From NCBI GenBank assembly GCA_002492295.1, contig DKYC01000132.1, forward strand, positions 6,085 through 70,084: a stretch of 64,000 bases of DNA, in the 5' to 3' direction. The stretch's first letter is position 1. The number at the start of each line of letters is the position of its first letter. The position numbers and the translations under genes are program-made. The DNA is from Lachnospiraceae bacterium UBA7110 (GTDB taxonomy: Bacteria; Bacillota; Clostridia; Lachnospirales; Lachnospiraceae). Under the pieces are notes generated by a model that was given only the letters and a program-made list of their open reading frames with translations, had not been told where the DNA came from and did no database searches. Shown here in pieces: positions 1,803 through 63,063 of the stretch.

Positions 1803-3860
1803 TTATTTTACAAGAATATCATCCAATCCCGCCGTATCGGAAACCGGGTTTGTCTCACATACAATGACTTGAAGCTTTGGCAGGTCTGCAAGCGGTTCCA
1901 GTGACGTAACATAGTTGTCCATGATATTAAGCATTTTCAACTGTTCCATCCCTGCCGCAAAGTCCACACTGTCTATTGTCAAATCCTCAAGCGTCAATTC
2001 TTCCATGCCGCGTAGCTTTGCAAGTGCCTCCTGAAGCTTTTTGACCTCAATATTCTCCTTATCTGCCCACTGATCAGTATTGTACCTGTAAATCATTGCA
2101 TTGCCCATATCAAGAATGCGCAGATGATCATTTTCCGCAACATTCTCCGTATTCAGCATAAAGGAAGTATAATCAACGTGCAGTTCTTTCAGATTTGGCA
2201 TATTCATAATCGGACTGATGTCGCTCCAAAGATAGCTGGAATACATATCCAAATATTCAAGCCCTTCAGCCTCAGATATCTGTTGTAGCATTTCAGGCGA
2301 AACAGAACTGTTTTTCACGGTAAGGGAACGCAAGTTCGGGAGCTGTAAAAGGGAATTACTGCTTCCGAAATCCCCGTAGCCGCCGTCATCAATAACCAGC
2401 TCCTCGACATTTGTCATATATTTCAGGTTGTCAAAGCTTTCAAAATTTCCAAGATAAAGCTTCGTCACATTGCTAAGTGCCGAAAAATCAGGCATATCGG
2501 AGTCGTCAAAATTAAAGCTTGTCATCAGACCAAATTCCTTCAGTCCTGTTAAACCTTTGACAAATTCATAATCCGTCGTTTCGTAATTTTCCAAAAGATA
2601 AAGGCTTTCCAGATCCGTGCATTCCGCAAGCGGCGTAAAATCAAGAACCTTGCTTCCAACCACGGTAAGTTCTTTCAGATTGTCAAATTTCGTTAAAAAG
2701 CTGACATCCCGAAGCGAGTCTGATTCGATATAAAGCGATTCCAACTGTGTCGCCTGATACAATGCGGAAAGGTCGTCAATATAATCGCCGTCCATAATGG
2801 TAAGCCTTTTTAAATTGGGAAGCTCGGAAATTCCGTTAATATCCGAGAGCATTGTGCTGCCTAAGTAAAGGCTTTCAACGTTTGTAAAAGCGCTAAGCCC
2901 GGAGACGGAAAAGCGGACATCGTAAAGGCCAAGCTCCGTTATCTGCTCAGGGGGAATGGTGCTTTCAATATCGCTTATGTAGCCGTCATAGTAGAGCGTA
3001 TGCAGCTTTTCAAGCCCGTCCAGGTTCAAATTGCCGGATGAGTACACCTTTAAGTAAAGCTCCTCAAGGTTTACAAAACAGGTGAGATCCTTGCTTATGT
3101 CAGGTTTTTGTGAGGCGGGATAAACCGTGCCCTGCGTGCCGTCCGAGAGCGTATAGTCCACTGCCAGGTAATCATACCCTACCTCGTAAACATGCAGGGA
3201 AATAATCTGCTCGGAATCCGACGCAGTTAACGCTTCAGCATCCTTTTCAAAGATAAGCCCCATCATTTGGCTGAAAAACTCGGACTGCGGAACTGCCAGG
3301 GTAATTTTTTCCAACGCAGGCTCTTCATCAGAACCGTCCGAATCGGAGGAGTAGCGTCCCGATCCCGCCCGGTTTGCGGACTCCTGATCCTCCTTTGATG
3401 CCTTGGAGCTGTCTTCATGGCGCGACGCGGCAAAAAAGCTTGAAACTACAAGGAACAGGATTATCAGAAAGACAGCGATTAAAACAAAGCAGACAACCAA
3501 AATGCCATTGGTGGATTTTTGCTTTTCATCCCCGTAGAGCGCCCGCCGTTTTTCCGTAATTTCGGCAAAGCTTGGAGTCGGGGAAGTGCCGCTGTTTTGT
3601 TGGTTTAAGTATTGCTCGTAAGGTCTTGGATTACTTTGGTTATTTTGCGTGCTGCCCGTCTGTCCTAAGCCTTGGTTTTGGTAAATCGAGCGGGAACTTT
3701 CGCTTGTGTTTGCAGTCGTACCTGTCGTTTCGCCGGAAGCGGAGGTGGTATAGGATGCGTGGCTAAAGGAATCGTTGTAGCCACAGTCGGGGCAGGTAAG
3801 CACCCCGTTTACCTTGCTCATTTTTGCACTGCACAGGGGACATTTTTTCTGAAATGCCAT
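1803..3860 (-). CDS. Membrane-anchored leucine-rich-repeat protein with N-terminal zinc ribbon
   Basis: CPLC..CPDC at the N-terminus, an S/T/Q/N-rich linker, one TM helix (ILVVCFVLIAVFLIILFLVV), then many LxxLxL repeats. Confidence 0.85.
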   Translation of the reverse strand: MAFQKKCPLCSAKMSKVNGVLTCPDCGYNDSFSHASYTTSASGETTGTTANTSESSRSIYQNQGLGQTGSTQNNQSNPRPYEQYLNQQNSGTSPTPSFAEITEKRRALYGDEKQKSTNGILVVCFVLIAVFLIILFLVVSSFFAASRHEDSSKASKEDQESANRAGSGRYSSDSDGSDEEPALEKITLAVPQSEFFSQMMGLIFEKDAEALTASDSEQIISLHVYEVGYDYLAVDYTLSDGTQGTVYPASQKPDISKDLTCFVNLEELYLKVYSSGNLNLDGLEKLHTLYYDGYISDIESTIPPEQITELGLYDVRFSVSGLSAFTNVESLYLGSTMLSDINGISELPNLKRLTIMDGDYIDDLSALYQATQLESLYIESDSLRDVSFLTKFDNLKELTVVGSKVLDFTPLAECTDLESLYLLENYETTDYEFVKGLTGLKEFGLMTSFNFDDSDMPDFSALSNVTKLYLGNFESFDNLKYMTNVEELVIDDGGYGDFGSSNSLLQLPNLRSLTVKNSSVSPEMLQQISEAEGLEYLDMYSSYLWSDISPIMNMPNLKELHVDYTSFMLNTENVAENDHLRILDMGNAMIYRYNTDQWADKENIEVKKLQEALAKLRGMEELTLEDLTIDSVDFAAGMEQLKMLNIMDNYVTSLEPLADLPKLQVIVCETNPVSDTAGLDDILVK

Positions 3861-4111
3861 TCGTGTATCGTTCCTTTCCTATTTAAATATGTTTTGTTTA
3901 AATTTGTTTTGAATATGTTTTCAAGTTTAAGTATGCTGGTAATATGGTTCATATCCGATTGCCCATATCACATTTGTTTTCAAGTATAACACAGATTATT
4001 ATGGATTGCATTAAAAATATAAAGACTTGCTTAGATTTGTATCGATATACATAGAAACAATTTAAAACTGCAGCCGGGGAATTCCTGCCCCAAAAGCAGA
4101 TATCTTACCAG

Positions 4112-4140
4112 TTGCCAAGAATTTTTAACTATGCTATGAT
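4112..4140 (+). promoter_or_regulatory. sigmaA-type promoter for the diguanylate cyclase
   Basis: TTGCCA-N17-TATGAT with an extended TG. Confidence 0.55.
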
Positions 4141-4200
4141 AAAAAAGGTAAAGGAAAACAAGGAGGAAAATCATCCTAAAAGAAACAGGAGGATAATCTG

Positions 4201-5451
4201 TTGAAAGAAACAAAAGGAGGCATACGCAAAAAGCTTCTCCCCATTGTCATATTACCGATTATTTTATTGAGCTTTCTGATTACGGTCGTCGGTGTAACGC
4301 TATTTTACAGTTTTTATACACAGAGCATTCGGGATGAACTGATATCCACGACGGATACACTGATTGACTGTCTGGACTTTGCAATCAGCGGCGACTATCA
4401 ATACATAAATGAAATGCTGTTTAAGGGAGATTTGAATATTACGGATTCAACAATGCTTTTGCGGATTAAAGAGCAGTCGGAGATTGATACCACATTTTTT
4501 TGGAACGATTTGCGTATCATGACCACGATAGAAGATGAGTATGGTATATCCGCCGTAGGGACAAAAGCGGACAGTCGGGTGTCAGATGTCGTATTAAAGC
4601 AGGGGATGAGCTATTCGTCGAAGGACTTATCAATCAATGGGAAGAACTATATCGGATATTATGTTCCGCTGAAAAATACAGGCGGAGAAGTTGTGGGCAT
4701 GATTTTTGCCGGGAAGCAGAAGGATTTGGTTTACCATAAAATAACAGAAGTTATTATATGGTTTGCCGTATTTTCCGTTCTTATGATTGCTTTTTCCCTT
4801 TTGATTACGCTCAAATTTTCGTCAAGCATGATTGCGGATATTAACAGTATTAACAGCTTTCTGAAGGCGATTTCGGAAGGAAATTTAAGGTCGAGGCTCG
4901 GAAACCGTGTTGTGAACCGTAAAGATGAAATCGGCTCTATTGGTCTTTATGCACTCAAGATGCGGGATAATCTTCAAAAGCTGATTGAGCGGGATGCCCT
5001 GACGGAGCTTTATAACAGAAGAAGCTGTCACAATATGCTGTCTGCAATTTCACAGAAAAATGAATTATACTGCGTTGTCATGTGTGATATTGATTTCTTT
5101 AAGAAAGTAAACGATACTTATGGACATGATGCAGGAGATTACGTGCTGCAGGAGGTGTCTGGTTTAATCAGGAAAAATGTTTCGGAGTACGGTTTTGCAA
5201 GCCGTTGGGGCGGGGAGGAATTTCTGCTTGTGTTCAGGCTTGGATATGAGGATACGGTTGCAAGGACACGGCAGCTGCGGCAAAGTATTCTGGAGCATGA
5301 TTTTACATATGAAAAAACGAAAATGGACATTACAATGACGTTTGGCGTTGCGGATGGAACGGAGTTTATCCGGTACGAGAATGTGATTAAGAAAGCGGAT
5401 GAGAAACTTTATATAGGAAAAAACAATGGTAGGAATCAGGTTGTTGCATAA
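4201..5451 (+). CDS. Diguanylate cyclase (TM-Cache-TM-HAMP-GGDEF)
   Basis: DALTELYNRR, DIDFFKKVNDTYGHDAGD, RWGGEEF, TMTFGVA; two TM helices flank a Cache-like region; TTG start after GGAGG. Confidence 0.92.
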   Translation: MKETKGGIRKKLLPIVILPIILLSFLITVVGVTLFYSFYTQSIRDELISTTDTLIDCLDFAISGDYQYINEMLFKGDLNITDSTMLLRIKEQSEIDTTFFWNDLRIMTTIEDEYGISAVGTKADSRVSDVVLKQGMSYSSKDLSINGKNYIGYYVPLKNTGGEVVGMIFAGKQKDLVYHKITEVIIWFAVFSVLMIAFSLLITLKFSSSMIADINSINSFLKAISEGNLRSRLGNRVVNRKDEIGSIGLYALKMRDNLQKLIERDALTELYNRRSCHNMLSAISQKNELYCVVMCDIDFFKKVNDTYGHDAGDYVLQEVSGLIRKNVSEYGFASRWGGEEFLLVFRLGYEDTVARTRQLRQSILEHDFTYEKTKMDITMTFGVADGTEFIRYENVIKKADEKLYIGKNNGRNQVVA

Positions 5452-5465
5452 CAGGAGAAGCACAT

Positions 5466-6257
5466 ATGAGAAAAAATATTACGAAAAAGCTGCTGTTAAT
5501 CGTACTGGCTTGTATGATGGCGTTTGTTTCAGGCTGTGGAGAGCAGCCGGTTGCAAATATGGTACAGTCGCTGGATGATTTGGAAGGAAAAAAGGTAGGA
5601 GTCCAGCTTAAGACAACAGGAGACGTCTATGCCAGCGACATTAAGGATGCGGAGGTTGTACGGTTTAACAGGGGGATTGATGCCGTGACAGCACTGAAAA
5701 AGGGTGTGGTCGATGCGGTTATCATCGATGATGCGCCTGCGAATGTGTTTGTAGGCGAGGTCGGCGGCTTAAAGCTGCTTGACGAGCCTTTTGCGGATGA
5801 GGAATACGGTATTGCCGTAAATAAAAACAATCCTGGGCTGTTGGCGGATATTAATGAGGCATTGGAAAAGCTGCAAAACGACGGCACCCTGGACAGCATA
5901 AAGGATTCCTGGATTATGGGCGACGTGCAGGAGAGTGCTTATGAAAGAAAGCAGGGGGCACATGCAAACGGCGTTTTGAAAATGATTACAAACGCGGAGT
6001 TTCCGCCGTATGAAAGTATGACGGAGGATGGCAGAATTGTAGGAATGGATGTGGATATCATGGCGGCGGTCTGTGATGAGCTGGATATGGAGCTTGAGGT
6101 GCAGAATACGTCGTTTGATTCCGTGATTGCGTCTGTGGAGAAGGGGGCGTCGTCGGTGGCGGTATCCGGCATCACAATCACGCAGGAGCGGATGGAGCAT
6201 GTGGACTTTTCGAATCCGTATACGAAGGCAAAGCAGGTGGTTATTGTGCGGGAATAA
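5466..6257 (+). CDS. Polar amino-acid ABC substrate-binding lipoprotein (family 3), circularly permuted
   Basis: Lipobox VSGC. Motifs DLEGKKVGVQLKTTG, VDAVIID and EEYGIAV come before TNAEFPPYE, GMDVDI and ITQERMEHVDFSNPY. Confidence 0.9.
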   Translation: MRKNITKKLLLIVLACMMAFVSGCGEQPVANMVQSLDDLEGKKVGVQLKTTGDVYASDIKDAEVVRFNRGIDAVTALKKGVVDAVIIDDAPANVFVGEVGGLKLLDEPFADEEYGIAVNKNNPGLLADINEALEKLQNDGTLDSIKDSWIMGDVQESAYERKQGAHANGVLKMITNAEFPPYESMTEDGRIVGMDVDIMAAVCDELDMELEVQNTSFDSVIASVEKGASSVAVSGITITQERMEHVDFSNPYTKAKQVVIVRE

Positions 6258-6307
6258 TGTTCGGAAGTGCAATAATGGTTTGAAGAAGAAAGGAGCACAG
6301 ACACAAA

Positions 6308-9300
6308 ATGACTGGAAAGATGAAAAAATGCATTGCATTCATGCTGGCACTGGTTCTTATGGTATCACCGCTTTCACAAACGAGAGTATATGCGGCGGAA
6401 ATGCAGGAAAGTCCGACTGCGGATGATACAAAAGAGTCGGAAAATCCGGCAGATGAAGAGAGCGAAAGGGCGTCCGAAACGGAGTCTGGGACAAAGGATG
6501 CTGTGACGCAGGAGCCGGAAACAAATACCGAACCGCAGAGCAGTGCGCAGGATACGGCAGAAGAGGAAAGTCCTGCTGAAGTGGTATCGGAAGAGGAGAG
6601 CGTGACTGAGGCAGCATCGGAACCGGAAACTGTGTCTGAGGCAGTGCCGGAAGAGGAAAGCGCGTCCTTGACGGAATCGGAGTCAGGTTCGGAAATGGAG
6701 ACGGAAAGTGTCCTTGAAACGGAATCTTTGGAAGATAACGGCGCCGGGGAAGAAATCGAGTATGCGCACCCCGAAGCGTTGGAACCGGAAAATGTCCCAT
6801 ATGATGAAAATCAGGATGCGTTTACAGATAAGCTTGTAAACAGCAGAAAGGCAAGGAGCGCTATTCCGGCAAAGTATGATGCGCGCGAGGAAGGTTATCT
6901 GCCCGCAATCCGGAATCAGGGAAGCTGGGGGGCATGTTGGAGTTTTTCCCTGCTTGGTGCGATGGAAGTAGCAGCAGTCAGAGATTTGGGCGTGTCCGCA
7001 GGCAGTATTGACTTGTCGGAGCGGCATCTTGCATATTTCGGATATCATACGGGATATGATGCACTTGATAATGCAAACGGGGATACGATGACCAGTAATC
7101 CTGCGGAATATTATCTGAAGCAGGGAGGTAATGATATCAGGGGCGTCGTGCGCCTGATGAACTGGAATGGCGGAGCGGATGAAAAGGAATATCCTTATTC
7201 AACAAGTTCGCTGCCTGGTGCATTGGACAGAACGGCGGCACAGGATGCCAGACTGTATCTTGAGAATGCATACCGCTATGATTTTAAAGCCGAAGGAAAT
7301 AAAAGTGAAGCAATCAAAGTTGTCAAGAAAATGATAATGGACTATGGCGCAGTGTCATGGTCATATTATAATGATTCGAAATATGTAAATGCGTCTAACG
7401 GAGCATATTATAATAATGTCGGAGGCTCCGGTAAGGCGGTGACAAACCATGCAATTATGGCAGTAGGATGGGATGACAGTTATCAAAAGGAGAACTTCCG
7501 GGAAGATAACCAGCCTGAAAATGACGGCGCATGGATTATCAGAAACAGTTGGGGAGAAAGCAATGGAGACGACGGATATTATTATATCTCTTATGAGGAT
7601 AAGTCCCTTGGTTCCGGAAATCCAGTGTATGCTTTTAGCGTCTGTGATACCGAAAAATATGACAACAATTATTTTTATGGAAATACGGCATATTCCGGTT
7701 CTACAATTGCCGCGAGAAGGGCTGCTCAGGTATATCAGATTAAGAGCGAAAATGCATCACGAGAAAAACTGACAGCAGTGTCATTTTTGAGCGGTACAGC
7801 CGATGTGGATTATGAACTTCAGTTATATAAAAATCCGGATATGGAAAACGGTGTAGTGACAAATCCGACAAGCGGAACAGCGCTGCTTGATACGCCGCAG
7901 AAAGGCACAACGGACTATGCGGGACTTTATACGATAGAGCTTGCGTCTCCGGTTATATTGGATACGGAAGATTATGTGTCAATTGTGCTTACGTTTCCGA
8001 ATACAAGACCTGCTTTGTACTTCGATAGAAGCTATACCTCCGATGATGGAAATTGTAAAGGGGAGCACATTGTTGCAAAAGGACAGAGCTTTTATGGTTC
8101 AAGCCTGACGTCATGGCAGGATAATTATGATAATAACAGAACGTTCCGAATCAATGCATTTACGCTGGATTGTGAGGATGTGCCGCCGGAAGTGGTCAAG
8201 ATTGACAGGATTGAATATGATTATGCAAATACGGCTGTCATTACATGGAGCGGCGGAGCGGGAGCCGATAAAGTTGCAATCTACAGAAGTGAAAATCCAT
8301 CAGACGAAGGTGAACTGATTGCGGATGTCCGTGTGAATTCGGACGAGGAAACATTCCATTATCAGGATAGTGTTCATAAAGGAAAGACATATTACTATAA
8401 TCTGGTTCCGATTTTAATCAATAAAAAAGGAACTGAGGTAAGAGGGCAGACCACAAAGTCTGACGAAATTTTAACGTTCCCTGAAGCTGTAATGCTGGAG
8501 ACAGCGCAGTATGCTGAGGGTACCGGTGTCAGCCTCACATGGAATCTGGCAAAGGGTGCGGAGGGATACCGAATCGAACGAAGCGACAACGGCGGTGATT
8601 TTGCGGAGCTTACTACGGTAGAAGACAGCGCTGTGGTAACATATACGGATTCGTCAGTGCAGGGAGGAAACCGTTACGGTTACCGTGTCCTTTGCTATTA
8701 TACGGCGGAGGATCAGGGCAGGGCTGTGGTTTCGCCGCTCAACGAAAGGAACGTGGAAATCCTGCCGGAACCCGTGAAGATTTCCGGAATTACGGAGCTT
8801 AAACGTGAGAACAACACAACCCGTGTCAGCCTTTCATGGAACAGGGTGGAAAATGCGCAGTCATATGCAGTATACCGGAGCGTGGCGGCAGACGGTTACG
8901 TTTGCATTGCGGAGAACATTACGGATGTGCAGTATGTTGACGATGCGGTTTCCCCGGATACCTCTTACAGCTATAAGGTGATAGTTACTGTAAACGGATT
9001 GAGCTCGGAAAGCGGGAAAACACAGGAGGCGGTGATTCTTACAAAACCGGTCCTGACAGCACTTAAGATGCCGGTATCAGAGCTGGAGCTGAATAAAGAT
9101 AACGCACAGGAGTTTAAAATAACGCCGGTACCGGAAAACTATCCTTATGAAAAGGAGCTTGTATGGTCCGCATTTGACGAGGATGGCAATCCGCTTGAGG
9201 TTGTGCAAAAAAATGACACGATTGTCATAAATGGCACTGACGGCAGGGAGGTTCTTCATCTTTCCGGCAATAAGATTTATGCAGCCCGTCAGTCTGATAC

Positions 9301-52629: not shown

Positions 52630-53487
52630 TTATTCCAAATTCAGCCGCTTTGTCATCATATGCAGATTGATAATGTGCATAATCACCGAAACAACCACTG
52701 CCCAAAGCAGTGAGATTATCATTGTGGGCGAAATAACCTCAAACATTGGTATTGTCTCTGAAAGCGCCTCCGCCCGGAGCATTTTGGAGTAGGTCGGCAG
52801 CATGGCGATGTAAGAGATTACCTGCTGAACGCTGACAATCGCAAAGTAAGCGATAATTGCGCCGATAATGCGGTGCTTTGTGTAAAGCTGTCCAAGGGAT
52901 ACGCAGCCAAGTATAATCATAATGGATGAGATGCAGGCGATAATCATAAAGACGGTATAAAATGTAATAAAACCGCCAAGGCTGATGCCGTAATCCTCCC
53001 GGAAGGACATTGACATTTCCGATAACACCTCGCCAACCATGCGGTCGATATAAACCTTGTCATACCCGGAAAGATTGCTGACATGGATATAAATCGCGCC
53101 AAGTATAATCATAATTGTGGCAAATATCCCCGCAAGCATCGCCAAATAGCATAGAACAGCCGTAATCGTCTTTGCCGCAAGAAGCGTCGTGGACGTAACG
53201 GGCAGCGTATGTGTCAGGTATCCCTGATCCGTGTAGGTCGTTTTATAGAACCGTATGGCAATAATCAGCATGGTTCCGACGGAGCAGCCAATAATGCCGA
53301 AATAGTAAAGCAGGATACAAAGGACAAGCGACATTGTCGAAAATCCTGCGGAAACATTGTCCATTTTGGGATTTATCGTAAAAATAATCGCACATGTGAG
53401 CAAGGTCGTACCGCCCAAAATGCCAAGCATAATCAAAAGCGGAAGGCGAAGTCCCCTCCATTCGTATTTCATCAGTTTTCCTAACAT
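52630..53487 (-). CDS. ABC-2 type exporter permease
   Basis: MLGKLMKYE; six hydrophobic helices; GYLTHTLPV. Confidence 0.88.
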   Translation of the reverse strand: MLGKLMKYEWRGLRLPLLIMLGILGGTTLLTCAIIFTINPKMDNVSAGFSTMSLVLCILLYYFGIIGCSVGTMLIIAIRFYKTTYTDQGYLTHTLPVTSTTLLAAKTITAVLCYLAMLAGIFATIMIILGAIYIHVSNLSGYDKVYIDRMVGEVLSEMSMSFREDYGISLGGFITFYTVFMIIACISSIMIILGCVSLGQLYTKHRIIGAIIAYFAIVSVQQVISYIAMLPTYSKMLRAEALSETIPMFEVISPTMIISLLWAVVVSVIMHIINLHMMTKRLNLE

Positions 53488-54209
53488 GCGTATACCTCCC
53501 TGAAATAAGCGTCCACGGATTTATTCTGCTGGTCTCTGATGGCATCTACCGAGGTGTAGAGCATCAGCGAACCGTTTTTCATAAAAATCACATCGTCAAG
53601 CACGTTTTCAATATCGGAAATCAAGTGTGTTGACAATATAATCGTAGAATTCGGATTGTAATTCGTGATAATTGTACGTAAAATATAATCCCTTGCGGCA
53701 GGGTCCACGCCCGCGATTGGCTCATCAAGGATATAAAGCTCGGCATTGCGGCTCATCACAAGGATAAGCTGTACCTTCTCCTTTGTGCCTTTTGAGAGTG
53801 TTTTCAGCCTTGCCTCCGGGCTGATGCCGAGGGATTCCAGCATGGAGTATGCCTTTTCCTTTGAAAAATCCTCGTAAAAATCGCCGAAATAATCTACCAT
53901 CTGCCGTACCTTCATGCCGTTGTCGAGATAAGTGCGCTCGGGCAGATAGGAAATCACGCGCTTGCTCTGTGCGCCCGGAAACATACCGTTAATATATACC
54001 GTTCCGCTTGTTGGCGCAAGCAGTCCGTTAATCATTTTGATTAAAGTCGTCTTTCCGCAGCCGTTTGGTCCTAATAATCCGATAATCCGTCCGCGCGGAA
54101 TGGTCAGATTCATATGGAACACCGACATATAGCTGCCCATGCCGGGATAGCGTTTGCACAAATCATTAATCTGCAGAAGCGGCGCTGCATTCATATATTG
54201 TTCATTCAT
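53481..54209 (-). CDS. ABC exporter ATP-binding protein
   Basis: GPNGCGKTT, LSKGTKEK, ILDEP, STH. Confidence 0.93.
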   Translation of the reverse strand: MNEQYMNAAPLLQINDLCKRYPGMGSYMSVFHMNLTIPRGRIIGLLGPNGCGKTTLIKMINGLLAPTSGTVYINGMFPGAQSKRVISYLPERTYLDNGMKVRQMVDYFGDFYEDFSKEKAYSMLESLGISPEARLKTLSKGTKEKVQLILVMSRNAELYILDEPIAGVDPAARDYILRTIITNYNPNSTIILSTHLISDIENVLDDVIFMKNGSLMLYTSVDAIRDQQNKSVDAYFREVYAC

Positions 54210-55039: not shown

Positions 55040-55951
55040 ATGTTCCGATACATCGTCAAACGAGTCATTCTTGCTGTCGCTACAGTGTTTATTATCGCTG
55101 CAATTACATTCTTTACCATGAATGCAATTCCCGGCGGACCGTTCGCTTCGGAGAAAGCGCCGAGTGAATCCGTCAAAAAAGTTTTGGAGGCGCGTTATAA
55201 CCTCGATAAACCTGTCGGCGAGCAGTTCATCATCTATATCAAAAATTTCCTTCACGGAGACTTGGGCGTTTCTTTAAAGACCGGAAGAAGTATTTCCACC
55301 GTTATCGGTGAATCGTTCCCCATATCTGCAAAGCTTGGCGGAATGGCGGCGGTGACGGCAGCGATTGTCGGCTTAATCCTTGGAAGTATTGCGGCGCTCA
55401 AAAGAAACACATTCATAGACCGCTTCATTGTATTTATCACCACGCTTTTTACCGCAGTACCAAGCTTTGTGCTTGCAACGCTGCTATTATATGTTTTCTG
55501 TATCATATTAAAATGGTCGCCTGTATTTGATCCGGAGAGGACGCACTATGTTCTTCCCGTGATTGCACTTGCGCTGTATCCGATGGCATACATTACGCGT
55601 CTGACAAAGACAAGTATGCTTGATGCGCTCAGTCAGGATTATGTCCGTACGGCGAATGCCAAGGGTGTGGCAGGCTGGAAGGTTATTTTTAAGCACGCGC
55701 TCAGAAACGCGGTGATTCCGGTCATTACTTATTTTGGACCGATGCTTGCGTACATACTGACAGGCAGTCTTGTGGTTGAGAATATTTTCACAATCGGCGG
55801 ACTTGGCACGAAATTTGTTTCAAGCATTACAAACCGTGATTATACAATGATTATGGGAACGACGATGTTCCTTGCGATTATCATGGTAACGATGAATTTG
55901 ATTACGGACATTATCTATAGCATTGTAGATCCCAGAATAAAGCTTGATTAG
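55040..55951 (+). CDS. oppB: Oligopeptide ABC permease
   Basis: AIPGGPF, YNLDKP..EQF, SQDYVRTA.AKG, HALRNA. Confidence 0.92.
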   Translation: MFRYIVKRVILAVATVFIIAAITFFTMNAIPGGPFASEKAPSESVKKVLEARYNLDKPVGEQFIIYIKNFLHGDLGVSLKTGRSISTVIGESFPISAKLGGMAAVTAAIVGLILGSIAALKRNTFIDRFIVFITTLFTAVPSFVLATLLLYVFCIILKWSPVFDPERTHYVLPVIALALYPMAYITRLTKTSMLDALSQDYVRTANAKGVAGWKVIFKHALRNAVIPVITYFGPMLAYILTGSLVVENIFTIGGLGTKFVSSITNRDYTMIMGTTMFLAIIMVTMNLITDIIYSIVDPRIKLD

Positions 55952-55976: not shown

Positions 55977-57068
55977 ATGGCAGAACAGAACGCAATGAAA
56001 AGAAATGTGCTGAGCGCACAGGTCGATTTATCAAAATTTCATTTCGATGATTCCGTTTTTGAAAAAGCGACGGACGAGGAGAAAAAACAGCAGGATGTCA
56101 TGAGCGAGTCCACCACGTTTTTTAAGGACGGTATGAAAAAGCTCATGAAAAATCCGCTTGCCGTTGGCAGTATTATTGTATTGATTTTCATTATGAGCGT
56201 GATTATTGTCGCGCCGCATATCGTGCCGTACAGTTATTCGCAGATTATCAGCGTCAACGGAAGGCGTGACAAGACGGCAAAAAATTTAAAGCCGTTTGAG
56301 TATTCGGAGAACGAGCTGGAATATATCGCGGAAGGCGGCGAGGTTTTTCCTCATATTATGGGAACGGACGCGCAGTGCCGTGACTATTTTATCCGTGTTG
56401 TATACGGTACAAGGGTATCGCTTGCGGTCGGATTGTTTGCCAGTATTTTGGTGTTGATTATCGGTTTGCTCTATGGTAGTATTTCGGGGTACATGGGCGG
56501 TAAGGTCGATTTGATTATGCAGCGTATTGTTGACATTATCTATTCCCTGCCGGACATGCTTGTCATTATTCTTTTATCAGTGGTTTTGAATGAAACACTC
56601 GGTGAAAAGCTTGAGGGCACATCTTTTCAGAGCCTCGGTGTAAACATGATTTCACTGTTCATCGTGTATGGTCTTTTATATTGGGTAAGCATGTCGCGTC
56701 TGGTGCGCGGACAGATTCTGACGATTAAAAACAATGAATATGTGCTTGCGGCAAAAGCAACGGGCGCGAAGACCGGCAGGATTATTGCAAAGCATATTAT
56801 TCCGAACTGCATCAGCGTTATCATAATTTCGACTGCGCTGCAGATTCCGTCGGCTATTTTTACGGAGAGTTACCTGAGCTTTATCGGACTGGGTGTACAG
56901 GCGCCGATGCCGTCGCTTGGAAGTCTTGCAAATACGGCGAGGGAGGGACTTCAGAGTTATCCGTATAAGCTGATTTTTCCGGCAGTTGTTATCTGTCTGA
57001 TTGTGCTTTCGCTTAATCTGCTCGGAGACGGCCTGCGCGATGCGTTTGACCCGAAGCTCAAGAAATAA
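55977..57068 (+). CDS. oppC: Oligopeptide ABC permease
   Basis: H.MGTD...RD, EYVLAAKATGA, HIIPN, ESYLSFIGLG, GDGLRDAFDP. Confidence 0.92.
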   Translation: MAEQNAMKRNVLSAQVDLSKFHFDDSVFEKATDEEKKQQDVMSESTTFFKDGMKKLMKNPLAVGSIIVLIFIMSVIIVAPHIVPYSYSQIISVNGRRDKTAKNLKPFEYSENELEYIAEGGEVFPHIMGTDAQCRDYFIRVVYGTRVSLAVGLFASILVLIIGLLYGSISGYMGGKVDLIMQRIVDIIYSLPDMLVIILLSVVLNETLGEKLEGTSFQSLGVNMISLFIVYGLLYWVSMSRLVRGQILTIKNNEYVLAAKATGAKTGRIIAKHIIPNCISVIIISTALQIPSAIFTESYLSFIGLGVQAPMPSLGSLANTAREGLQSYPYKLIFPAVVICLIVLSLNLLGDGLRDAFDPKLKK

Positions 57069-57101: not shown

Positions 57102-58109
57102 ATGAGTGAAGAATACATTTTACAGGTAAAGGATTTACATACATCATTTTTTACGGAGTCGGGTGAGGTCAAGGCGGTAAACGGCGTGAACTTTAATTTG
57201 GCACCCGGAAAAATCCTTGGCATTGTGGGCGAGTCCGGTTCGGGAAAGAGTGTTACGGCGTACTCGATTATGCAGATTTTGGCGTCAACGGGACGTATCG
57301 TGAGCGGTGAGGTGCTCTATCGCGGCGAGGATATTACGAAATATGATAAAAAACAGATGAAAAATTTCAGGGGAAAGTGCTGCAGCATTATCTTTCAGGA
57401 TCCGATGACAAGCCTTAACCCTGTATTTACGATAGGAAACCAGTTGATGGAGGCAATTTTGCTCCACACGGATAAGAACAAACAGCAGGCGAAAGAGCGC
57501 GCAATTGAAATGCTTGAGCTTGTGGGCGTGAATGAGCCGCAAAAGCGTATTAAGCAGTATCCGCATGAGCTTTCAGGCGGTATGCGCCAGCGTGTGATGA
57601 TTGCCATGGCGCTTGCGTGCGAGCCGGATATCCTGATTGCGGACGAGCCGACGACGGCGCTTGACGTGACCATTCAGGCTCAGATTTTGGAGCTGATGCA
57701 GGAACTGCAGAAAAAGCTCGGTATGGCGATTATTATGGTAACGCATGATTTGGGTGTGATTGCGGATATGTGTGATGAAATTATCGTGATGTATGGCGGC
57801 CGCGTGTGTGAACGCGGGACGGCGGAGGATATTTTTTACCGTCCTGGTCATGAGTATACGAAAGGGCTTCTGCGTTCCGTTCCGAAGGCGGACGGCAGTA
57901 AGGAGCGGCTTGTTCCCATTGCGGGTACGCCGATTAATCTGTTAAATATGCCAAAGGGCTGTGCGTTTTGTACGCGCTGTGACGAGGCGATGAAAATCTG
58001 CCTGACGGAGGTTCCGCCGCAGGTGCAGATGCCTGACGGGCATTTCGCGTCATGCTGGCTTGCGTTTAAGAAGCTGAAAGATGGCACACTGGAGGAGGGA
58101 CGGTCATGA
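57102..58109 (+). CDS. oppD: Oligopeptide ABC ATP-binding protein
   Basis: [37 protein letters not shown]. Confidence 0.93.
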
Positions 58110-59068
58110 GCAGTGAATATTTGATAGAGGTGGAGGACTTAAAGCAGTACTTCCCCATTAAGACAGGATTTTTCAAAACCACGCCCCTCAAAGCGGTGGA
58201 TGGTGTATCATTCAACATCAAACCGGGCGAAACATTGGGACTTGTTGGCGAGTCGGGCTGCGGAAAGACGACGGTCGGTCGTACGCTTCTGCGTCTTTAT
58301 GAGCCGACTTCGGGTACGGTCAAGTTTGACGGCAATGAGATTACCGCGAAAAATATGGCAGAGTACCGCAAAAACATGCAGATGGTGTTTCAGGATCCGT
58401 ATTCTTCCCTAAATCCGCGTATGACGGTAGAGGATATTATTGGGGAGCCGCTTGACGTGCACAAGATGTATTCAAATAAAAACGAGCGCCGCGAGAAGAT
58501 ATTAGGCCTGATGGAGCTTGTGGGCTTGAATGCCGAGCATGCGACGCGCTATGCGCATGAGTTTTCGGGCGGTCAGAGACAGCGTATCGGGATTGCGCGG
58601 GCGCTTGCGGTAAAACCACAGTTTATTGTCTGCGATGAGGCGGTAAGTGCGCTTGACGTTTCCATTCAGGCGCAGGTTATCAACATGTTTGAGGATTTAC
58701 AGGAAAAGCTTGGCGTGGCGTACTTGTTTATCGCGCATGACTTGCTGGTTGTAAGGCATATTTCAAGCCGTATTGCAGTGATGTATCTTGGAAAGGTTGT
58801 TGAGATTGGCGACGCGGACGAGGTTTATGAGCATCCCATTCATCCGTACACGGAGTCCCTTTTGAGTGCTGTTCCTATTCCGGATCCGATTCAGGCAAAG
58901 CAGAGCCAGCGGATTGTGCTTTCCGGCGATGTGCCAAGCCCGATGAATATGCCGACAGGCTGCGCGTTCCGCACAAGATGCCGTTTTGCGACGGATAAGT
59001 GCGCGGAGGTTTGCCCGACGCTTACGGATAAGGGCGGCGGACATATGGTGGCGTGCCATAATCGTTAG
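58106..59068 (+). CDS. oppF: Oligopeptide ABC ATP-binding protein
   Basis: [41 protein letters not shown]. Confidence 0.93.
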
Positions 59069-59205
59069 TATTTTACAATGTAAAAAGCTTAGAAAATGAG
59101 GATATTGACATTTCCCCGACGGTATTTTCCGAAAAGGGGGTGTGAATATAGATAAAATCTGTTTTATATTGTTTTAAAAATTTTTAAAGGAGGAAACACA
59201 TTATT

Positions 59206-61002
59206 ATGAAAAAGAAACAGGTATTGGCTCTTTGCCTTGCACTTGCGATGGCAATGGGGACACTGACAGCATGCGGTTCATCAAACAATGCACCCGCGGC
59301 TGATAATGCAGTGGACACGCCTGCCGAGACGCAGGCACAGGACGGCGCGGAAGCAGGAGCAGAGAATACAACGGATGCGGCAGACGCGGAGAACGCGGTT
59401 GATCCTGCAAACTGGGGAGAATACGACGCGTTAATTGAGGAAATCAGAACAACGACAGACTTTGTGGAGCGCGAGGCGCTGATGCATAAGGCTGAGGATA
59501 TGATTATGGAGACAGGCGCAATCCTGCCGATTTACTATTACAACAATATGTATTTACAGAAGCCGTACGTATCAGGCGTTTATGTAAACGGCTATGGTTT
59601 TAAATATTGGATGTTTGCCGAGACACAAGGCGATACGCTCAGACTGAATCAGGCATCTGAGCCGGACAAGCTTGATCCCGCATTAAATTCTACTGTTGAT
59701 GGTGCGTGTCTTGCGGTAAACAGCTTTTCAGGTCTTTTCACCTATGATGAGAATGCGGAAGTCGTTCCCGATCTTGCCGCAGATTATACGGTAAGCGACG
59801 ATGGCTTAACATATACTTTTAACTTACTTCCTGACTTGAAATGGTCAGACGGTTCTGAATTGAATGCAAACGATTTTGTCTATTCATGGAACCGTGCGGT
59901 TGCGGAAGAAACAGCGGCAGATTATTCTTATATGTTTGACGCGATTAAGCACAATGATGACGGTACTCTTGCAATAACGGCAAGCGAGGATGGCCAGTCC
60001 CTTACGGTAGAGCTTGGGGCGCCTTGTGCATATTTCCTTGACCTTTGTGCTTTCCCTGCTTACTATCCCGTAAAGCAGAGCGAGGTAGAGTCGGCAGCGG
60101 ATTGGCAGACGAATCCGGGTGCTTGGTGCCAGGAGGCAGGCTTTGTTTCAAATGGTGCTTATACACTGGAGTCATGGACACATGACGAGTCCATGGTATA
60201 TGTAAAGAACCCGAATTATCACAGAGCGGACGAGGTGAAGATTGAGAAGCTTCAGTTCATGCTGAGCGCAGACGACACGGCAGTTTTTGCGGCATACAAT
60301 GCGGGCGACCTTGATTTCGTGGCAGATACGATTCCGACAGATGAAATTCAGACGCTTTTGGGCAATCCCGAGTTCCATACCGTTGACCAGATTGGAACAT
60401 ATTATGTAGGCTTTAATGTAAAGAGCGACCTTTTTGCGGATAAGACGCCTGCGCAGGCAAATGCAATGAGACGTGCTTTCGCACTTTTGGTTGACCGTGA
60501 TTACATTGCCGAGAATATCGGACAGACGGGACAGAAGCCTGCAAATACCTTTATTCCTGCAGGAATGGCTGATGGTAATGGCGGCGTTTTCAAGGAGAAT
60601 GACGATGCGTATACCTACCCGGACGAAGCGACGACAGGCTACTATGATCCGGAAGCGATTGATGAGAACGTTGAGAAGGCAATTGAGCTTTTAGAGTTCG
60701 CAGGCTATGAGTTTACGGACGATGGTGTGCTTTCTGATGCTACGCCGATTTCGTTTGAGTACCTTACAAACGATACGACAACTCATGTGGCAATTGCAGA
60801 GGCATTGCAGCAGGATTTCGGCTTTATCGGAATTAACATGACAATTAAAACCGTGGACTGGAATGTATTCCTGAATGAGAGAAAAGCAGGAAACTATGAC
60901 ATTGCACGTAACGGTTGGGTTGCAGATTTTAATGACCCGATTAACATGCTTGAGATGTGGACGACAGAGTCAGGTAACAACGACTGTCAGTTTGGCAGGT
61001 AA
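59206..61002 (+). CDS. oppA: Oligopeptide ABC substrate-binding lipoprotein (family 5), circularly permuted
   Basis: Lipobox LTAC; SEPDKLDPA, LKWSDG..L.A.DFVYSW, NGAYTL..W, GWVADF.DP. The canonical C-terminal segment sits at the N-terminus. Confidence 0.9.
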   Translation: MKKKQVLALCLALAMAMGTLTACGSSNNAPAADNAVDTPAETQAQDGAEAGAENTTDAADAENAVDPANWGEYDALIEEIRTTTDFVEREALMHKAEDMIMETGAILPIYYYNNMYLQKPYVSGVYVNGYGFKYWMFAETQGDTLRLNQASEPDKLDPALNSTVDGACLAVNSFSGLFTYDENAEVVPDLAADYTVSDDGLTYTFNLLPDLKWSDGSELNANDFVYSWNRAVAEETAADYSYMFDAIKHNDDGTLAITASEDGQSLTVELGAPCAYFLDLCAFPAYYPVKQSEVESAADWQTNPGAWCQEAGFVSNGAYTLESWTHDESMVYVKNPNYHRADEVKIEKLQFMLSADDTAVFAAYNAGDLDFVADTIPTDEIQTLLGNPEFHTVDQIGTYYVGFNVKSDLFADKTPAQANAMRRAFALLVDRDYIAENIGQTGQKPANTFIPAGMADGNGGVFKENDDAYTYPDEATTGYYDPEAIDENVEKAIELLEFAGYEFTDDGVLSDATPISFEYLTNDTTTHVAIAEALQQDFGFIGINMTIKTVDWNVFLNERKAGNYDIARNGWVADFNDPINMLEMWTTESGNNDCQFGR

Positions 61003-61021
61003 TTGGGATTATATGTTCTTA

Positions 61022-61143: not shown

Positions 61144-63063
61144 ATGGAACAGGATAGATTGTTAAACCAATTGATGGATGAAAAACTAAGATATTTAAGA
61201 CTGCTGGCGGAGAAATACCCTTCGATACCGTCAGTGTGCCGGGAAATCATTAATCTCAAGGCAATCTTAAATCTGCCGAAGGGTACGGAGCATTTTATGA
61301 GCGATATCCACGGTGAATATGAGGCATTTTACCATATTATGAACAATGCGGCAGGCGTTATCAAGGAAAAGGTGGACCTGCTGTTTTCCGACAGGCTTTC
61401 CGCGCAGGAGCGGCAGGAAATCTGTACGCTGGTGTATTATCCGGAGGAAAAAATAAAGCTGTTAAAACGCCAGAATATGGTGACACCTTATTGGTATCAG
61501 ACAAACCTTAAAAATTTGACGGAGCTTGCAAAGCTGCTTTCGTCAAAGTATACACGTTCGAAAGTGCGGAAGGCAATTCCGGAGGAGTTCAGCTTTATCA
61601 TTGATGAGCTGCTGCACGCGCAGCCTGACGAGGACAACAACCAGCTTGTCTATCATGAGAAGATTATTGAAACCATCATTGACATCGACAGTGCGGACGC
61701 GTTTATAGGAGCGTTATGTCGCCTGATTAAACGGCTTGCGGTTGACAGGCTGCATATTGTCGGGGATATTTACGACAGGGGACCGAAAGCGGATAAGATA
61801 ATGGATTTGCTCATTTCGCACCATTCGGTTGATATTGAGTGGGGAAACCATGACATTCTGTGGATGGGCGCGGCCTGCGGAAATGAAGCGTGCATTGCCA
61901 ATATTTTGCGAAATAATATCCGGTATAACAGTATCGAAATTCTTGAAAATTCCTATGCCATCAGCCTGCGTGTTCTGGCGCTTTTTGCGGAGCATACGTA
62001 TCCCGGGCTTGCGCCGATGGATGCGGCGACTAAGGCAATTTCCGTTATTTTGTTCAAGTTAGAGGGACAGATTATTATGCGCCATCCCGAGTATGACATG
62101 AACGACAGGTTGCTTTTGGACAAGATGGATTTGGAACGCGGTGTGGTACGCATTGGGGACAAGGAATACGAGCTGAACGATACCTATTTTCCGACTGTCA
62201 GCAAAGAGAATCCATATGCGCTTTCGCAGGAGGAGCAGGAGGTGATTGACGACCTGCGCGCGGCGTTTACAAACAGTCATATGCTGCGAAAACATGTTCG
62301 CTTCCTGTATGAGAAGGGAAATATCTATTTGTGCTACAACGGCAATCTGCTGTTCCATGGCTGTATTCCGATGGACGAAAACGGCGATTTTGACGGGATG
62401 CGGATTGGCGATACGATGTACCGCGGCAAGGAATACATGGACTATGCCTGTAAGATTGCAAGGCGTGCATTTTTCGACACCTACGACCAGTCAAACAACG
62501 ACTTTATGTGGTATTTGTGGTGCGGCAAAAAATCGCCGCTTTCCGGCAGAAACATGAAAACCTTTGAGCGGACGTTTGTGGTTGACAAATCGACCTACGA
62601 TGAGCCGAAAAATCCATATTACAGTTTTTACCAGCAGGAAAAATACTGCCGCAAAATTCTGCACGAGTTTGGCTTGGACAGCTCGATTTCCCATATTATC
62701 AACGGACATACGCCGATTAAGGTCGCAAAGGGGGAATCGCCGCTCAAGGCAAATAACCGCTTAATCGTCATTGATGGCGGGTTCTGCCGCGCGTATCAGA
62801 AAACGACGGGCATTGCAGGCTATACGTTGATTTACAACTCGCACGGAATGCGTCTGAAGGCACACCAGCCCTTTGAGAGTGTTGCCAAGGTGCTCTCGGA
62901 GAATAAGGACATTGAGTCGACCTCAAATTTCTTTGAGACGGAAAGTGACCGTGTCATGGTAAAGGATACGGACAACGGTAAGGTAATACTGGATACAATC
63001 AATGACTTGGAATTGCTGCTGCTGGCATATAGGCGGGGATTGATTAGCGTCGGAAAGGAATGA
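61144..63063 (+). CDS. fbp: Fructose-1,6-bisphosphatase class III
   Basis: LNLPKGTEHFMSDIHGEYEAF, GDIYDRG, WGNHD, NGHTP, DGGFCRAYQ. Confidence 0.95.
   Translation: MEQDRLLNQLMDEKLRYLRLLAEKYPSIPSVCREIINLKAILNLPKGTEHFMSDIHGEYEAFYHIMNNAAGVIKEKVDLLFSDRLSAQERQEICTLVYYPEEKIKLLKRQNMVTPYWYQTNLKNLTELAKLLSSKYTRSKVRKAIPEEFSFIIDELLHAQPDEDNNQLVYHEKIIETIIDIDSADAFIGALCRLIKRLAVDRLHIVGDIYDRGPKADKIMDLLISHHSVDIEWGNHDILWMGAACGNEACIANILRNNIRYNSIEILENSYAISLRVLALFAEHTYPGLAPMDAATKAISVILFKLEGQIIMRHPEYDMNDRLLLDKMDLERGVVRIGDKEYELNDTYFPTVSKENPYALSQEEQEVIDDLRAAFTNSHMLRKHVRFLYEKGNIYLCYNGNLLFHGCIPMDENGDFDGMRIGDTMYRGKEYMDYACKIARRAFFDTYDQSNNDFMWYLWCGKKSPLSGRNMKTFERTFVVDKSTYDEPKNPYYSFYQQEKYCRKILHEFGLDSSISHIINGHTPIKVAKGESPLKANNRLIVIDGGFCRAYQKTTGIAGYTLIYNSHGMRLKAHQPFESVAKVLSENKDIESTSNFFETESDRVMVKDTDNGKVILDTINDLELLLLAYRRGLISVGKE

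Follow-up and report, generated by a model that had tools for sequence, protein, structure and literature searches.

The 64,000-nucleotide stretch of contig DKYC01000132.1 from Lachnospiraceae bacterium UBA7110 that was analyzed here (the window, from whose first letter all coordinates given without a locus label are counted) carries an opp transporter operon, the fifth and final gene of which, located behind oppB, oppC, oppD and oppF, encodes an OppA-type substrate-binding protein (SBP) with a lipoprotein signal peptide. This protein is a true circular permutant of the family-5 binding proteins: about 75 residues that end the canonical chain stand at its beginning, and its own chain stops where they would otherwise follow. 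The operon and the permuted gene comprise the following features.

55040–55951, plus strand: oppB-type permease, 303 aa (Pfam BPD_transp_1 and BPD_transp_1_N).
55977–57068, plus strand: oppC-type permease, 363 aa (Pfam OppC_N and BPD_transp_1).
57102–58109, plus strand: oppD-type ATPase, 335 aa (Pfam ABC_tran and oligo_HPY).
58106–59068, plus strand: oppF-type ATPase, 320 aa (Pfam ABC_tran and oligo_HPY); its start overlaps the oppD stop.
59186–59193, plus strand: Shine-Dalgarno-like AAAGGAGG, 12 nt before the ATG, read from the sequence.
59206–61002, plus strand: permuted OppA-type lipoprotein gene, 598 codons plus TAA (open reading frame, Pfam, phmmer and homologues).
59206–59274, plus strand: signal peptide with lipobox L-T-A-C (Cys23), read from the sequence; L20 and C23 never vary among 32 homologues.
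59275–59397, plus strand: acidic low-complexity tether, residues 24–64 (~40 residues), varying in length and sequence among homologues.
59398–59622, plus strand: transposed piece, residues 65–139, equivalent to the canonical C-terminal two helices and β-hairpin (phmmer, model and dN/dS).
59617–59634, plus strand: joint A-E-T-Q-G-D, at which the old C-terminus is fused straight to the old mature N-terminus (comparison with the canonical P0128 and P0131).
59623–60999, plus strand: body, residues 140–598, equivalent to canonical residues ~16–443 and stopping in a variable loop after GNNDCQFGR (Pfam and phmmer).
60907–60927, plus strand: R568-N-G-W-V-A-D574 motif, aligned with R-x-x-W-x-x-D of OppA/MppA (alignment to MppA and B. 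subtilis OppA).
61000–61002, plus strand: stop codon TAA in a conserved place, after QFG[R/K] in 15/15 species read and 32/32 aligned homologues.

The signal peptide and lipobox read MKKKQVLALCLALAMAMGTLTAC, with the Cys23 codon at 59272–59274; the lipoprotein assignment was made from the lipobox, read from the sequence, and the invariant cysteine. Beyond the tether, residues 69–139 (59410–59622), NWGEYDALIEEIRTTTDFVEREALMHKAEDMIMETGAILPIYYYNNMYLQKPYVSGVYVNGYGFKYWMFAE, constitute the segment quoted in a first-pass annotation of this DNA, which had proposed that the canonical C-terminal ~70 aa were moved to the N-terminus. The segment passes via AETQGD into TLRLNQASEPDKLDPA, the long body opening after AETQGD with TLRLNQASEPDKLDP, and the chain finishes with SGNNDCQFGR followed by TAA. 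Near the end of the body, R568, W571, A573 and D574 are invariant in the alignment of 32 homologues. In OppA and MppA the equivalent R-x-x-W-x-x-D motif presumably holds the termini of the peptide ligand, and the conserved R568/W571/D574 motif is the sole hint that the window protein may bind peptides with free termini. Promoter and terminator scans returned nothing distinctive near the gene.

The swapped chain order is evident from comparison with proteins of known structure. In phmmer searches against PDB sequences, query residues 138–591 matched residues 16–443 of B. subtilis DppE (independent E-value, i-E, 4e-50), and query residues 65–132 matched DppE residues 443–512 (i-E 8e-8); for B. 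subtilis OppA (8are) the corresponding blocks were query 143–594 with 20–450 and query 72–136 with 456–520 (i-E 9e-4), and E. coli MppA (3o9p) aligned in the same two swapped blocks. The two-block alignment to OppA that had been anticipated is thus seen with all three proteins, each of them non-collinear with the query, and the window protein lacks the canonical N-to-C order of the cluster C binding proteins. When a query spanning the joint was searched against the PDB, none of the 80 matched chains crossed the joint; all hold both parts at opposite ends. Aligning with a doubled query gave one full turn of ~537 residues with zero overlap, each segment being present once. The body alone accounts for the Pfam match to PF00496 (SBP_bac_5), in which residues 185–592 cover profile positions 1–367 of 368 with 268.1 bits (cut-off 32.4). 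The score of 216.3 bits against the OppA equivalog model NCBIfam NF011684 (PRK15104) is below its cut-off of 947, so that on its model scores the window protein is OppA-like, yet no E. coli OppA equivalog. The same genome also encodes a canonical-order paralogue with 33% identity.

AlphaFold2 (AF2), run on 58 diverse same-order sequences, gave a model with a predicted local distance difference test score (pLDDT) of 89.9 and a predicted template modeling score (pTM) of 0.84; this run replaced an earlier one on 32 close homologues, which had produced a poor model (pLDDT 61.9). The moved piece scores 91–97 and is modeled as two helices (residues 71–82 and 86–103) and a hairpin (strand 106–118), and only the tether (residues 20–56) scores below 50. 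Foldseek searches of the PDB with this model returned B. subtilis OppA and E. coli MppA, in their closed, liganded forms, as the best matches, together with DppE, all with probability 1.00, a root-mean-square deviation (rmsd) of 2.4–3.6 Å over ~475 columns and a template modeling (TM) score of 0.73–0.76 on the target. A collinear aligner confronted with ~70 residues out of order would be expected to reach no more than a TM score of ~0.75. The predicted three-domain OppA-like fold can be assigned with confidence, and the proposed displacement of the canonical C-terminus, now measured at ~75 residues, is borne out by phmmer, by the 32-homologue alignment, by AF2 and by Foldseek.

The site of the cut was defined by comparison with the nearest canonical-order relatives (P0128, P0131 and P0151, 56–58% identity). 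In these proteins a variable loop of 7–17 residues lies between GNND.Q[FL]G[RKQ] and W-x-[EQ]-Y / W-x-E-Y-D. The window protein stops at the beginning of this loop, just where its early reading as a chain that ends ahead of the missing segment had put it, and its mature domain opens at the loop's end (…AVDPANW). The canonical P0128 and P0131 chains end in …YFMYA(K/E)KTA and their mature domains start at …TTTL; in the window protein the old termini have been joined with almost no added residues (…FKYWMFAE-TQGD-TLRLN). By homology to S. typhimurium OppA, whose domain limits we take as the guide, the cut would lie in domain III; both hinge crossovers would therefore be intact, and the main physical change would thus be a shift of the tether from domain I to domain III. 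The relocation of the tether is inferred to have been neutral or mildly adaptive in effect. The window-type break itself is not a single position, with at least three distinct cut positions, depending on lineage, within the one loop. In P0206, P0176, P0196 and P0207 the loop contains an EF-hand- or dockerin-like D-x-N-x-D-G-x-I-x-x-x-E insert, which the cut precedes in some lineages and follows in others.

Two other readings of the chain ends were considered and set aside. A short duplicated motif common to both ends (NDxQF at the end, DPxNW at the start) was rejected because the canonical relatives hold both motifs in series, with the 7–17-residue loop between them. The first-pass annotation had further suggested that the bases across the stop (61001–61012), which read N-W-D-Y in another frame, might be a vestige of a deleted copy; this is a chance reading, unconserved in 15 related species, and the frame stops after 9 codons.

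The permuted order is widely conserved. A further 120 clusters with at least 69% identity share it, with coverage of 89–100% (mostly 97–100%). The two-block swapped alignment is far beyond chance: 31 homologues with 70–93% identity, and 46 more distant clusters down to ~35% identity, retain the moved segment as well as both ends of the chain. The 32-sequence alignment shows conservation of the lipobox cysteine, of V65, D66 and W70 where the moved piece begins, and of GNND.QFG[R/K] at the C-terminus. When GTDB species were scanned, each represented by a single genome, the best 80 loci (at least 80 species) all showed the same order; 72 of these have oppBCDF ahead of the gene on the same strand, and in all 15 loci read a stop comes directly after QFG[R/K]. 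The order is present in the cultured Lachnospiraceae bacterium COE1 (93% identity, on a 1.3-Mb scaffold), in Proteiniclasticum aestuarii and Proteiniclasticum sp. C24MP (62% identity), and in loci from Acetatifactor, Blautia and Choladousia; within the family, 13 of the 151 genera sampled gave a match spanning the joint. The ratio of nonsynonymous to synonymous substitution rates (dN/dS) against two relatives is 0.075–0.11 for the moved piece and 0.03–0.05 for the body. The permuted topology is inherited and under purifying selection.

The window's order is one of several. The protein was scored against 1.84 billion cluster representatives (50% identity) and the nearest 150 were re-aligned to the query: 57 have the window's order (46 stand-alone proteins and 11 in which it forms the C-terminal domain of a longer protein), 51 have the canonical order, and 15 have other circular orders, all retaining the joint between the old C-terminus and the old N-terminus. 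The new starts of these 15 lie near query residue 250 (P0194, P0210), near 291–305 (P0237), near 410–420 (P0177, P0189, P0225, P0250, P0257 and the ends of two giant surface proteins) and near 486–517 (P0169, P0220, P0267, P0213, P0236). A follow-up search with P0237 recovered a same-order homologue, P0271 (85% identity), and 27 clusters of a sixth non-canonical order, which is cut within the "moved piece" just before the PLYFY strand. In total there are six non-canonical break sites, or seven orders when the canonical one is counted. In the 13 full-length non-canonical examples that were read, a lipoprotein signal peptide directly precedes the mid-protein segment, except in P0194, the N-terminus of which is truncated. 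All breaks fall in loops between the secondary-structure elements of the AF2 model, and those near 105 and 410 appear, by homology, to coincide with the two inter-lobe (hinge) crossovers.

The other orders likewise sit behind opp transporter genes. Locus L008 (GCA_023453725.1) contains oppBCDF followed by two tandem break-500 genes (3928–5598 and 6001–7674) that are 90% identical; in L009, oppBCDF is followed by a break-410 gene, and in L011 an oppF-type ATPase gene is followed by a break-300 gene. At L010, a BTAD-domain gene (2262–3491, minus strand) adjoins the break-250 SBP gene for P0210, followed by T2SSE and T2SSF (type II/IV secretion-like). Beyond the transporter loci, the window-order domain forms the C-terminal part of two Ser/Thr protein kinases (P0139, P0145), of a DUF6709 protein (P0124) and of P0121, a long helical apolipoprotein-like protein; in these four the domain is probably a sensor module. 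P0208 combines a BTAD and AAA_16 regulator with four head-to-tail SBP_bac_5 domains, and P0180 also has four. Two proteins of more than 3000 aa end in break-410 domains: P0216, a surface protein (Big_2, BspA-type LRR) with a terminal permuted binding domain of this order, and P0258, which ends in a break-410-type domain.

Chain order has changed repeatedly among these relatives. By direct BLAST, paired proteins of different order resemble one another far more than they do proteins of their own order, with 63% identity in both blocks for P0236 and P0255, 64% and 74% in the two blocks for P0196 and P0206, 54% and 59% for P0220 and P0192, and 59% and 49% for P0199 and P0232. Trees built after all sequences had been set back into one order require 23 (FastTree) or 21 (IQ-TREE) order changes, compared with ~52 when the labels are shuffled. 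The approximately unbiased (AU) test rejected a single clade for the window's order (ΔlnL 858, p = 4e-46) and for the break-500 order (ΔlnL 552, p = 9e-38), both groups having been named after the tree had been seen. The suspicion that SBPs have been permuted recurrently in this lineage is therefore well founded, with six non-canonical breaks and ~21–23 topology changes among close relatives. The amino-acid-binding lipoprotein encoded at 5466–6257 (plus strand; SBP_bac_3, 263 aa), which had been called permuted at the same time, is also circularly permuted: its residues 165–262 correspond to residues 6–103 of AncQR (4zv1), and its residues 32–150 to 108–231. Its gene adjoins a GGDEF-like gene (4201–5451).

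One recent rotation can be followed at the DNA level. L011 (P0237) and L093/L094 (P0272/P0273) have an orthologous upstream oppF (78% nucleotide identity) and collinear signal-peptide DNA, and between L011 and L094 the tether DNA aligns as well. Downstream of this point, L011 1534–2485 corresponds to L093 2035–2986 (84%) and L011 2488–3129 to L093 1387–2031 (80%). Relative to L093, the mature region of L011 has been rotated at its own locus, while the signal peptide ahead of it is unchanged. At the head-to-tail joint of L011 the final sense codon of the ancestral gene is followed by the codon that opened its mature domain, and the new C-end and new N-start were adjacent in the ancestral order (L093 2031|2035). 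Across eight sister pairs the gap between new C-end and new N-start is 0–11 residues, and the ends never overlap.

How such rotations arise was weighed between two routes. In the first, the mature domain would be doubled head to tail and in frame behind the unchanged signal peptide, and the redundant ends would then be lost to leave a rotated chain; this duplication-deletion route, unproven and offered as a model only, is the most compatible with the data. Stable head-to-tail relatives favor it, P0178, P0244 and P0126 having two domains and P0180 and P0208 four, and these are the very intermediates that the model needs. Several observations weigh against it. Of the forms that the first-pass annotation had proposed to seek, unpermuted and permuted relatives were found, and tandem two-domain relatives exist, but none of 389 proteins has overlapping ends (more than one turn but less than two). 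No remnant of a second copy was found after the stop at the window gene or in 15 related species; downstream of the young permutant in L011 there is no such remnant either, the only match there coming from the end of another SBP gene in convergent orientation. The complementarity of the ends within 0–11 residues in the eight sister pairs also counts against duplication-deletion, because two independent truncations do not predict such ends. All of these features, like the adjacency of the ends in the ancestral order and a joint without extra residues, speak for a swap of two segments of the mature region in one step, for example by three-break re-ligation or a multi-template-switch replication error. 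Such a swap nevertheless seems to us rather unlikely: the head-to-tail proteins that duplication needs exist, bacterial genomes are quick to delete redundant DNA, and no bacterial mechanism is known for frequent segment swaps of this kind.

The nature of the product was considered in the same way. That the window comes from a metagenome-assembled genome of 172 contigs might suggest an assembly artefact or a decaying gene, in which a truncated, non-functional oppA has acquired a 3′ terminus from an upstream copy since lost. An identical protein is, however, found on 15 contigs, the same architecture and stop recur in 80 species, isolate genomes among them, dN/dS is ~0.03–0.11, the predicted model is confident and complete, and the operon is conserved; this explanation is effectively refuted. 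The protein is in all likelihood a functional, membrane-tethered cluster C lipoprotein of the OppA/DppE/MppA group, circularly permuted and acting as receptor for OppBCDF, which very probably binds oligopeptides or muropeptides and delivers them to the adjacent importer. Three points weigh against this assignment or limit its precision. The moved piece is placed at the canonical C-terminal position by the high confidence of the predicted model; the score of 216 bits against the 947 set for the OppA equivalog means that the ligands may differ from those of OppA; and the best PDB sequence match is DppE, a binder of murein tripeptide. The latter two would also suit a permuted, functional protein that is no general oligopeptide receptor and serves instead for muropeptides (as DppE and MppA do), for signaling peptides (as PrgZ does) or mainly as a sensor, as would the relatives in which same-order domains are joined to Ser/Thr kinases or to other proteins without a transport role. 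We consider this narrower role improbable, since the window copy is the sole binding-protein gene of a complete oppBCDF operon and retains the Arg/Asp motif for free peptide termini.

Directly downstream of the operon, 61144–63063 (plus strand) encodes a class 3 (Firmicute-type) fructose-1,6-bisphosphatase (PF06874, 927 bits), a neighbor that recurs in just 4 of the 80 related loci. Farther upstream, a 284-aa open reading frame without a Pfam match (52630–53487, minus strand) overlaps the start of an ABC ATPase gene (53481–54209, minus strand).

Compared with the canonical cluster C proteins (DppE 8ay0, OppA 8are, MppA 3o9p and OppA 1b05/3tcf), the window protein belongs to the same family (PF00496, E 1e-50 to 1e-61), has the same predicted three-domain fold (Foldseek rmsd 2.4–3.6 Å), and has in common with them the OppBCDF operon setting and the Arg…Trp..Asp ligand-terminus motif; with the Gram-positive members it also shares the lipoprotein anchor. 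Unlike them, it has the last ~75 residues first, ends after GNND.QFGR and carries its tether on another domain. The closest precedent is TpMglB-2 (Tp0684) of Treponema pallidum, the "cluster Bc" protein, a lipid-tethered ABC binding protein of naturally permuted order in which glucose binding and closure persist, the topology of which is common to many Gram-positive gut bacteria and for which its authors considered that tethering may favor a different topology (PMC4990184). TpMglB-2 is a cluster B sugar binder with one permutation, the permuted parts of which have ~13% identity to the canonical form, leaving its origin unclear (PMC4990184). In the window family, by contrast, permuted and canonical forms share 55–89% identity and several break sites coexist. 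The window protein lies outside cluster Bc, every sequence and fold match being to cluster C, and the resemblance is conceptual. Within the periplasmic-binding-protein fold, the glycine-betaine binders OpuAC and ProX, molybdate-binding proteins and CysB are also related by permutation (CPSARST, PMC2395249); these are cluster F / type II proteins, with <24% identity and a relation found only by structure (PMC2395249), unlike the window family, which is young and repeatedly rotating. Tandem substrate-binding-domain proteins of the GlnPQ type (6h30) have head-to-tail domains, as do P0178, P0244, P0126, P0180 and P0208, which represent plausible raw material for permutation; the GlnPQ-type proteins are unpermuted, and the window protein has each segment exactly once. 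Full-text literature searches found no description of a permuted OppA or cluster C binding protein, and binding proteins are unmentioned in the CIRPIN survey of circular permutations (2026). The permutant, conserved and functional in appearance, is confirmed: the kind of protein is known, its topology is new, and the many recent rotations among its relatives add to its interest.

The consequences extend from annotation to protein design. Domain models that assume collinearity (Pfam "SBP_bac_5 Middle", equivalog HMMs), like fold searches that do so, describe such proteins incompletely, and annotation pipelines label them "peptide ABC transporter substrate-binding protein", so that the rearrangement is overlooked. 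ABC importers use binding proteins that are the textbook example of a hinged "Venus flytrap" and that are favored as biosensor scaffolds, which engineers permute by hand; here, nature has repeatedly permuted cluster C, the largest and most complex class of them, and some of the break sites appear to sever a hinge strand. Permuted and unpermuted forms with up to 85–89% protein identity at the same genomic position constitute matched natural pairs, suited to tests of how connectivity and tether position bear on folding, export, lipidation, affinity, closing dynamics and permease docking, and they provide a tractable case for the genomic origin of circular permutation. Tentatively, and as one possibility that we would not yet favor, the clostridial OppA-type lipoproteins may be a permutation hot spot, with about twenty in-place rotations among the nearest relatives that leave signal peptide and tether as they were, exactly complementary ends, and at least six break sites, two of them at hinge crossovers by homology. 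Were this so, it would point to a one-step or strongly canalized rearrangement, or to selection on the site of tether attachment, and the family would offer the best natural series on how far a hinged protein tolerates rewiring.

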